Of a stretch of DNA of 61,223 nt, positions 29,891 through 30,275 are shown in pieces. Numbering within the stretch: the first letter of the stretch is position 1; every line of letters begins with the position of its first letter. Position numbers and translations under genes: made by a program. Source of the DNA: an uncultured Pseudomonadales bacterium (lineage in GTDB: Bacteria; Patescibacteriota; Microgenomatia; UBA1400; PJMF01); assembly GCA_964620965.1 (NCBI GenBank), contig CAZUHV010000001.1:20839-82061 (forward strand), in the 5' to 3' direction. The notes under the pieces are model-generated. The model was not told the origin of the DNA and ran no database searches. It saw only the letters and a program-made list of their open reading frames with translations.

Positions 29891-30275
29891 CTGCCCAAAA
29901 AAACGGGACAGGTACTTAAAATTGATTACATGTGCACTGTGAGCTTTCACAGGTGCTGTTGACTACAATAGCACATGGGCAGCACCACCTGCGAGAGCTT
30001 ACAAAGTGAAGTTTTCCCCTGTAAACACTAGTAAATTATTGATTCTGATGGTGAGTTTTAAGTACCGCCTCAGAAACTAACCAGCGTATTAAGTTGGTGG
30101 AAGAAAGTCGTCGAACTTATGACGGTTTTTGTTCTGGTACAAAAACCGCTACCTAGATCCGTCAGATCCATGGTAGCGATTTTGTATTCGATATAGAGTC
30201 AGGTTTGTATTTACCAACCTAACTCGATTGTGGGTCTCGTTTTTTTTGAGACTCACTTTCAGAGTCAATAACTCT
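29891..30275 (+). ncRNA. Candidate large structured non-coding RNA of unknown family
   Basis: No ORF on + except one spanning the tRNA. About 10 helices, including a 13-bp long-range helix 29911-23/30054-66 and an 18-bp helix 29938-55/29986-30003. G-U pairs favour the + strand. Confidence 0.6.

Follow-up and report, generated by a model that had tools for sequence, protein, structure and literature searches.

A Candidate Structured RNA beside an Identity-Mismatched Transfer RNA in the Accessory Slot of a Prophage

The RNA and Its Locus

A 61,223-nt stretch of genomic DNA from an uncultured bacterium of the Patescibacteriota (assembly GCA_964620965.1, contig CAZUHV010000001.1, positions 20,839 to 82,061 of the forward strand; hereafter the window) carries a dense series of inverted repeats at 29891-30275, directly before a transfer RNA (tRNA) gene at 30283-30364 on the + strand. 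The repeats probably represent a real, undescribed RNA. Our favored reading, held with slightly better than even confidence, is that 29890-30282 forms the body of an undescribed structured + strand noncoding RNA (ncRNA) that would be cotranscribed with the tRNA and freed by tRNA processing. The RNA ends 7 nt upstream of the tRNA, which is the sole RNA gene recognized across the whole window.

The locus occupies a 920-bp stretch (29736-30656) that has no open reading frame (ORF) of more than 60 aa in six-frame translation and has two small ORFs (+ strand) on its left and, on its right, the stop codon of a gene on the - strand. The order is an integrase gene and the two ORFs on the + strand, the RNA, the + strand tRNA, and then, on the - strand, putative endolysin, tail, head, and terminase genes. 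A coding function for the repeats was rejected, there being no conserved ORF in six frames; a 33-aa - strand ORF is frameshifted in the homolog described below.

Predicted Fold

The pile-up of inverted repeats is real and non-random. Read on the + strand, 29891-30275 has a minimum free energy (MFE) of -130.6 kcal/mol against -92.9 +/- 6.0 kcal/mol for dinucleotide-preserving shuffles (z -6.34), with 0/100 shuffles folding as well, a comparison that had been suggested in an earlier interpretation of the letters alone (hereafter the sequence-only reading). Pair probabilities, calculated from the ensemble of the full transcript 29885-30376, predict a chain of hairpins arranged in two closed domains. 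The 5' domain (29888-30035; z -3.6 on the + strand and -2.3 on the - strand) begins on the + strand with H0, a bulged 5'-terminal hairpin (29891-29911; CUG-CCC-AAAAAAAC loop-GGG-A-CAG), followed by P2, a long imperfect hairpin of 26-32 bp at 29934-30008 (core 29938-30003) with a pair probability of 0.98-0.99. P2 carries an A.C mismatch (A29949/C29992) and a G.U pair (G29941/U30000), both conserved in the homolog. The 3' domain (30036-30271; MFE -84.6 kcal/mol and z -7.3 on the + strand, z -8.3 on the - strand) is closed by a 13-bp helix with one U.G pair (30036-48/30259-71; pair probability 0.53-0.80), which is present in the MFE structures of both the window and the homolog. Inside this helix are + strand hairpins at 30080-98, 30108-25, 30123-48, 30147-78, 30196-225, and 30230-56, and a small hairpin at 30261-75 is an alternative to the closing helix.

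All of these 3' hairpins, including the perfect 10-bp stem at 30123-48, had been marked in the sequence-only reading, and we recovered them in the same places. The larger helices of that reading were borne out in part. P1 (29911-23/30054-66), drawn there as a 13-bp helix enclosing P2, is a real complementarity with one G.U pair, but we rejected it as an enclosing helix: it is absent from the MFE structure, has a pair probability of ~0.01, and lacks its 5' strand in the homolog, which keeps the 3' strand without a complementary partner. Forming P1 together with the 30036-48/30259-71 helix would need a pseudoknot. The 18-bp pairing 29938-55/29986-30003 stands at 17/18 pairs, but the cap drawn on it, CTGTTG-ACTA-CAATAG, is not the apical pairing common to the window and the homolog, which joins GCUGUUG with CAGC(A/G). 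Another candidate long-range pairing, 29897-909/30234-46, was rejected at a pair probability of ~0.

A Diverged Homolog with Compensatory Changes

One true homolog was found, on contig L082 (Logan SRR32688039), where the same tRNA stands beside a variant form of the RNA. Identity between the two loci is ~60% in the upstream region and promoter and ~60% in the 5' domain (98/162 aligned columns), and from window position 30032 on it is 98.0% in the 3' domain, 98.8% in the tRNA, and 94.6% in the right arm beyond it, the 3' domain and tRNA being more conserved than this adjoining arm. This looks like a recombination breakpoint at ~30030, inside the RNA, which implies that there are at least two diverged lineages of this RNA.

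The 5' domain keeps its pairing across this divergence. L082 has the hairpin CUG-CUAU-[ACAG]-AUAG-C-CAG at the same place as H0, with the same outer 3 bp and the one-base bulge at the same position, and with two inner pairs changed on both sides. Based on a trimmed alignment of P2 in which the apical loops were replaced by AAAA, 16/16 scored pairs are kept, of which 6 are changed on both sides, 1 on one side, and 9 are invariant. Slid controls, with the partner strand shifted by 1-3 columns, gave 27-50% paired positions and zero double changes. Over P2 and H0 together, both partners have changed in 6 + 2 pairs, and no pair is broken. We regard the compensatory evidence for P2 as good but short of statistical proof because just two sequences are compared.

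Changes in the 3' domain of L082 all preserve structure. G30084A turns a G.U into an A-U pair, T30247C turns a G.U into a G-C pair, and of two 1-nt insertions one falls in an internal loop and the other in a linker. The compensatory changes that the sequence-only reading would expect among homologs are present in one homolog and in its 5' domain, the 3' domain being uninformative.

These comparisons bear on whether the hairpins could be a non-functional leftover, that is, decayed cargo or captured host DNA carried with the tRNA. The rarity of the RNA would suit such an origin, as only two variants were found, and neither scans of IMG/VR and JGI metagenomes with a few exact 15-23-nt words nor blastn against GenBank phages and plasmids gave any more; the slot it occupies between the integrase and endolysin genes also resembles a dumping ground with varied content. 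However, decay does not yield folding at z -6 to -7, nor does it retain 16/16 pairs through 6 double substitutions at 60% identity, and the 3' domain is better conserved than the neighboring flank. We consider a leftover improbable.

Strand, Promoters, and Terminators

The favored strand is the + strand, because of the folding energy of P2, an upstream promoter sequence common to relatives, the lack of a terminator before the tRNA, and the placement of the tRNA itself on that strand. Energy alone cannot pick the strand since both fold about equally, the - strand of 29891-30275 having an MFE of -125.5 kcal/mol and a z of -7.2. The sequence-only reading had argued for the + strand from the repeated occurrence of G-U pairs; overall this does not discriminate (13/124 pairs on the + strand, 12/119 on the - strand), but the argument holds for P2 and two other hairpins, 30080-98 and 30230-56. 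In both the window and L082, P2 folds more stably by 7-10 kcal/mol on the + strand than on the - strand, five G.U pairs in the P2 of L082 would read as C.A mismatches on the - strand, and the - strand MFE structure of the 5' domain does not form P2.

A promoter-like sequence, P(+), lies on the + strand at 29857-29889 and comprises TTGCGT (29857-62), a 17-nt spacer, and a -10-like element (ATTAAC/TAACTATT), with a predicted start at ~29890-93. About 40 nt at this place (window 29855-29889) align with the stretch that precedes slot RNAs in L082 and in three contigs of related phages (L066, L067, and L007), with the consensus CTAsTTGCrw-N17-GATAAT. A pattern scan also gave TTTAAA-17-TATAAT at 29843-71. 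The putative start falls 1-3 nt before H0 in both variants of the RNA, which would make H0 a 5'-terminal hairpin. The pattern scan found no terminator-like site between P(+) and the tRNA, so that cotranscription of the two is plausible.

On the opposite strand, P(-) is a promoter-like sequence at 30449-30421 (TTGACA-17-TACAAT) with 11/12 consensus matches. Its hexamers are unchanged in the window, L082, L066, and L067, and the first is TTGACT in L081, while the spacer varies. If P(-) is active, as this conservation suggests, antisense transcription across the tRNA and RNA is also likely. A palindromic hairpin with a T-run on the - strand (AACCG-N8-CGGTT, 30474-30494), read from the sequence and conserved in 5 variants, is probably the terminator of the late (endolysin) operon; it was not scored as a terminator by the pattern scan.

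We consider it improbable that the functional transcript lies on the - strand, starting at P(-), running antisense through the tRNA and hairpins, and perhaps extending as far as the integrase gene, on which it would act as an antisense regulator. The invariance of the P(-) hexamers in 4 variants, and near invariance in a fifth, with a varying spacer would agree with this, as would the good overall fold of the - strand and the greater stability there of hairpins 30147-78 and 30196-225. The 5' domain speaks against it, P2 being weaker by 7-10 kcal/mol in both variants and missing from the - strand MFE structure. On the - strand the L082 G.U pairs in P2 and the 3'-domain changes from G.U to Watson-Crick pairs would be C.A mismatches, and the promoter that is homologous among relatives faces the + direction.

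The Variable Slot in Related Phages

The RNA locus sits 1.5 kb inside the prophage in an accessory slot between the integrase and endolysin genes, and the content of this slot differs among related phages. It is empty (220 bp) in L071 and L072, holds two ORFs in L006, and in L081 holds a hairpin-plus-terminator element, a 69-aa ORF, and a 74-nt tRNA. In L065-L069 it carries a conserved ~150-nt small RNA with a terminator, then a 70-72-nt tRNA-like gene; L007 has the small RNA only, its contig ending before the tRNA position. The small RNA lies at ~1985-2130 (-) in L066, ~7490-7635 (-) in L067, and 1900-2048 (+) in L007, and had no Rfam match at E<=0.1. Its 5' hairpin shows compensatory changes (CUCCU/AGGAG vs CUCUG/CAGAG) and is followed by a long stem ending in a U-run. 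Because this small RNA is terminated before the tRNA-like gene, the latter seems to be a separate unit in these relatives.

The slot RNAs of L007 and L065-L069 are like the window locus in their position, upstream promoter sequence, right arm with a - strand promoter, and clamped tRNA(-like) gene, but they are smaller than the window RNA and share no detectable sequence similarity with it (nhmmer). The conserved right arm (30377-30656, 280 bp) shows 85-95% identity in those relatives whose slot has a tRNA(-like) gene, and is absent from L071, with its empty slot, and L006, with its ORF-filled slot. The module therefore appears, from these comparisons, to consist of P(+), an RNA, a tRNA(-like) gene, and P(-).

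Nested inverted repeats (30495-507/30631-43 and 30576-87/30607-18) lie within the right arm, ahead of the terminator in the endolysin gene's 3' untranslated region; relatives conserve this flank in sequence, and no useful covariation was found among them. L006 also has a weak Rfam match to the Phe leader at 4249-4365 (-), upstream of its integrase gene in the presumed phage attachment site (attP) region (42.6 bits against a cut-off of 55; E 6e-4), which is probably just a hairpin plus terminator.

tRNAs with Mismatched Identity

The window tRNA (30283-30364, +) is a type-II tRNA with a Leu-like long variable arm, anticodon CCA, and discriminator A. ARAGORN calls it tRNA-Trp(CCA), Rfam scores it at 55.9 bits as a tRNA, and among GenBank phages it best matches tRNA-Leu genes (76% identity). 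Its gene does not encode the CCA end, which must be added after processing. A leader/trailer helix, UAAUAAG (30275-81) with CUUAUUA (30365-71) on the + strand, extends the acceptor stem (pair probability 0.82-1.0). The slot tRNA-like genes of L066, L067, and L081 are likewise bracketed by inverted repeats. Between L066 and L067 these repeats show one compensatory change (TTAATAAA/TTTATTAA vs TTAACAAA/TTTGTTAA), and their recurrence in relatives suggests a common processing or stabilizing duplex.

In every tRNA(-like) gene found in the slot, the body disagrees with the anticodon. The tRNAs of the window and L082 (1389-1470, -) combine a Leu-type long arm and A73 with the anticodon CCA, which reads the Trp codon UGG. 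Those of L081 (1451-1524, -) and L067 (7365-7434, -) have an acceptor stem with the alanine identity pair G3.U70, and the anticodons TAG (Leu) and TCT (Arg). The gene in L065 and L066 (1858-1930, -, in L066) shares their acceptor and T arm and has an "anticodon" loop of 6 nt; it resembles the tRNA-like domain of transfer-messenger RNA (tmRNA), scoring 27.7 bits with the Rfam tmRNA model, below the cut-off of 47. Judging from their sequences, the slot genes may be mis-decoding or decoy tRNAs.

The main alternative to a free-standing ncRNA, which we rate as unlikely, is a cis-acting leader. In this view, the RNA and antisense transcription from P(-) would jointly govern a mis-decoding tRNA that is potentially harmful, through its folding, processing, or stability. 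The RNA and tRNA are contiguous with no terminator between them, the leader/trailer pairing clamps the acceptor stem, identity features are mismatched in all slot tRNA-like genes, and the convergent P(-) is conserved in 5 variants. Moreover, the anticodon-stem strand GUGGGUCUC at 30309-17 has a complement in the 3' arm of hairpin 30230-56 (GAGACUCAC). However, this 9-nt repeat is within chance for 1 kb, and five other 9-10-nt repeats are present. The tRNA-like genes of relatives stand behind a different, terminated small RNA, so that no particular leader seems to be needed, and that P2 and H0 have been kept despite 40% divergence suggests that the 5' domain has a role of its own.

Prophage Setting

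From position 1 to ~28.3 kb the window contains ordinary bacterial genes, including those for a nucleotide-sugar epimerase, a DnaX-like clamp loader, an EF4-like GTPase, transporters, a kinase, an acetyltransferase, a methyltransferase, and a Y-family polymerase. The last of these, a DinB/ImpB-like DNA polymerase gene (26443-27738, -), lies ~600 bp outside the junction on the bacterial side. Rightwards from 28356 there is homology to temperate phage contigs, in which the same 170 bp upstream of the integrase gene run into phage early genes rather than bacterial ones. The onset of homology, together with the phage early genes beyond it in relatives, places the left prophage junction at ~28356 and hence the attachment site of the integrase upstream of its gene. 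The homology starts at GTGATCCCGAACTAGGATCTCGAATC (28356-28400), which contains the hairpin GATCC-N7-GGATC, and two Logan contigs begin at or just before the junction, at window positions 28356 and 28311. The best reading of this setting is that the RNA region is part of an accessory ("moron") module carried by a temperate phage that is integrated in a small bacterial genome. A distant endolysin match in a Saccharibacteria metagenome-assembled genome makes Candidatus Saccharibacteria the probable, if tentative, host.

The tyrosine integrase gene (28526-29434, +) ends 450 bp upstream of the RNA. Directly 3' of it are two overlapping small + strand ORFs of 53-56 aa (29459-29620 and 29565-29735), for which Pfam and PHROG gave no match. 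They look paralogous (...NVKVISPKEIKITVEKD / ...NVSVESLTEIKIEIPKN), and relatives have 1 or 2 copies.

The inverted repeats might instead function at the DNA level, be it as a site of attachment or recombination for the neighboring tyrosine recombinase, as a replication origin, or as repeats bound by a protein. A tyrosine integrase gene 450 bp upstream, slot content that varies among relatives as if cassettes were exchanged, and equal folding of both strands, as palindromic DNA would show, are compatible with this. The attachment site of the adjacent integrase was rejected as an identity, though, because the junction lies at ~28356, upstream of the integrase gene and with bacterial genes to its left, and the RNA lies 1.5 kb into the prophage. 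Repeats bound by a protein keep their sequence, but in P2 it is the pairing that is kept while the sequence changes. The replication and packaging genes are situated elsewhere, not at the RNA locus, and the window holds no other copy of the element. We think a DNA-level role very improbable.

Searches for Known Families and Further Members

Rfam 15, applied to the whole window at gathering score, matched only the tRNA, in agreement with the sequence-only reading, which could not match the element to RNase P, tmRNA, signal recognition particle RNA, 6S, or introns. A more permissive scan (E<=10) of the 1.1 kb at 29600-30700 gave only chance-level microRNA and small nucleolar RNA models (E 2-8). 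There was no Rfam match to RNase P, tmRNA, signal recognition particle RNA, 6S, T-box, group I/II introns, or known ribozymes, and ARAGORN found no tmRNA even at relaxed thresholds. A decayed tRNA array was rejected, since ARAGORN at an 80% threshold finds one tRNA and makes extra calls only at 70%, on both strands. A miniature inverted-repeat transposable element was rejected because no other copy of the RNA, in whole or part, or of its 13-nt terminal repeat occurs in the 61-kb window, and the flanks GGGACA and GCCTCA show no target-site duplication.

GOLLD and ROOL, large tRNA-adjacent phage RNAs that assemble into RNA cages, deserve separate mention, as the sequence-only reading had named them as a parallel. 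Both, like the window RNA, are structured phage or prophage RNAs whose function is not established and which are often beside tRNA genes. ROOL is ~580 nt long. GOLLD is often >800 nt and has a conserved 3' and a variable 5' region (PMC12286853). The prophage location beside a tRNA, the strong structure, and a conserved 3' and variable 5' region of the kind described for GOLLD (PMC12286853) could suggest a divergent member. However, cmscan gave no hit to GOLLD (RF01998) or ROOL (RF03087), either at gathering score or at E<=10 in 29600-30700, and membership was rejected; no common motifs were seen. The window RNA is also shorter than either family, at ~390 nt from predicted start to tRNA, occurs in another host lineage, and is predicted to fold as a hairpin chain rather than a multi-pseudoknot structure. 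We therefore find a divergent member extremely improbable, and of the parallel there remains a resemblance in kind only, that of a phage ncRNA beside a tRNA.

Further members of the RNA family were sought widely. Five contigs from four sequencing runs are 100% identical to the window locus and so added no variation. No RNA homolog was found by blastn against GenBank phages and plasmids, and IMG/VR scans with a few exact 15-23-nt words yielded none or chance matches only. The same was true of two JGI metagenome scans, a weak negative because the collection misses a JGI contig that bears the pattern. The integrase has 2 relatives among 5.8 billion proteins, both without the RNA, and the IMG/VR relatives have no module. 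Inspection of six endolysin relatives led to the one homolog, L082; a scan of one-genome-per-species contigs found one distant Saccharibacteria locus by its endolysin match, without the module, and 34 aligned endolysins varied too much for a search pattern to be drawn from them. Based on these searches, the RNA family appears to be rare or confined to poorly sampled phages, and with two members it is a candidate class rather than an established one.

A Proposed Pathway and Its Parallels

We propose that transcription from the promoter common to relatives, P(+), at ~29890 would give a precursor of at least 475 nt that folds into three closed units: the 5' domain of H0 and P2, the 3' domain of six hairpins closed by the 13-bp long-range helix, and the tRNA with its extended acceptor stem. 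RNase P would cut at G30283, perhaps with an additional double-strand-specific cut in the leader/trailer duplex. Cleavage would free a ~390-nt RNA with a protected 5' hairpin and a defined 3' end, plus the tRNA. The freed RNA could then be a stable trans-acting phage RNA working alongside the unusual tRNA in the phage-host relationship. The sequence-only reading had likewise proposed an undescribed ncRNA cotranscribed with the tRNA; the lack of a known family, the upstream promoter sequence, and the missing terminator are consistent with it, and the cotranscription is a step that we infer.

Several points weigh against this pathway. The -10 element of the window P(+) is weak (ATTAAC), and it is P(-), the conserved near-consensus promoter, that points antisense into the tRNA and RNA; the - strand folds about as well overall (z -7.2 for the whole element and -8.3 for the 3' domain), with hairpins 30147-78 and 30196-225 more stable there. 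Downstream of the tRNA, too, no terminator was found. With 11/500 shuffles reaching the observed value, the control by shuffling has low power for P2, and two sequences that are 98% identical in the 3' domain allow no covariation test of that domain. The trans-acting role is a guess by analogy.

Some parallels to the pathway can be drawn from other systems. The tRNA cluster of phage T4 includes the stable RNAs species 1 and 2 (rnaC and rnaD), of ~120-140 nt, which share a precursor transcript with tRNAs and are cut out of it by the enzymes of tRNA processing. In contrast to the window RNA, these belong to a lytic phage and a multi-tRNA cluster and have no sequence relation to it, and the processing in the window is conjectural. 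In P4 CI RNA, MALAT1-mascRNA, and the Escherichia coli 3' external transcribed spacer (3'ETS)-leuZ sponge, a tRNA(-like) element is cut by RNase P or RNase E, and the cut defines one end of a functional non-tRNA RNA from the same precursor; these come from other organisms and differ in size and sequence, and for the window RNA such cleavage is a proposal. RNase III hairpins are known from phage transcripts, including the T7 early region and lambda sib. P2 is like them in being long and nearly perfect, with one internal mismatch, in a phage transcript near an integrase gene, but it differs in lying inside a multi-domain ncRNA rather than between genes and in being downstream of the integrase gene without adjoining it. 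It is possible that P2 and the leader/trailer duplex are RNase III substrates.

A more specific function can be imagined from the mismatched tRNAs, although we hold it to be quite unlikely: the RNA would be the partner of a deliberately mis-decoding tRNA, in a module of the form P(+) > RNA > Leu-type tRNA reading UGG < P(-) that acts as an RNA-only device. If so, the structured RNA and the antisense transcript would hold back or release a mistranslating tRNA, for example at induction or superinfection, and its release would reprogram or poison translation. A second reading of this unlikely kind is that the RNA represents a new, smaller class of self-assembling "ornate" phage RNA. RNAs of the GOLLD and ROOL type beside phage tRNAs are among the least understood bacterial RNAs, and the window RNA would add an unrelated, smaller example, probably from Saccharibacteria, ultra-small episymbionts for which, to our knowledge, hardly any phage RNAs have been described. 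Its link to a tRNA whose body and anticodon disagree, together with the mismatched slot genes of relatives, provides a testable handle, and raises the question of whether decoding is altered by RNA modules that phages carry, and of what controls such tRNAs.

Other Features of the Prophage

The gene whose stop codon bounds the locus on the right (30657-31706, -) encodes a putative endolysin of 349 aa without a Pfam match. Its C-terminal 60% is 80-92% identical to endolysins with VanY, M23, or CHAP domains, and its N-terminal 130 aa form a separate, widely found module in which Cys and His residues are invariant. This architecture looks like endolysin domain shuffling. At the far right of the window, a 12-nt unit (GACTTGAGCCCC and variants) is repeated in tandem from ~61060 to the window end at 61223, and a 35-kb Logan contig of the same phage stops approximately at this array.

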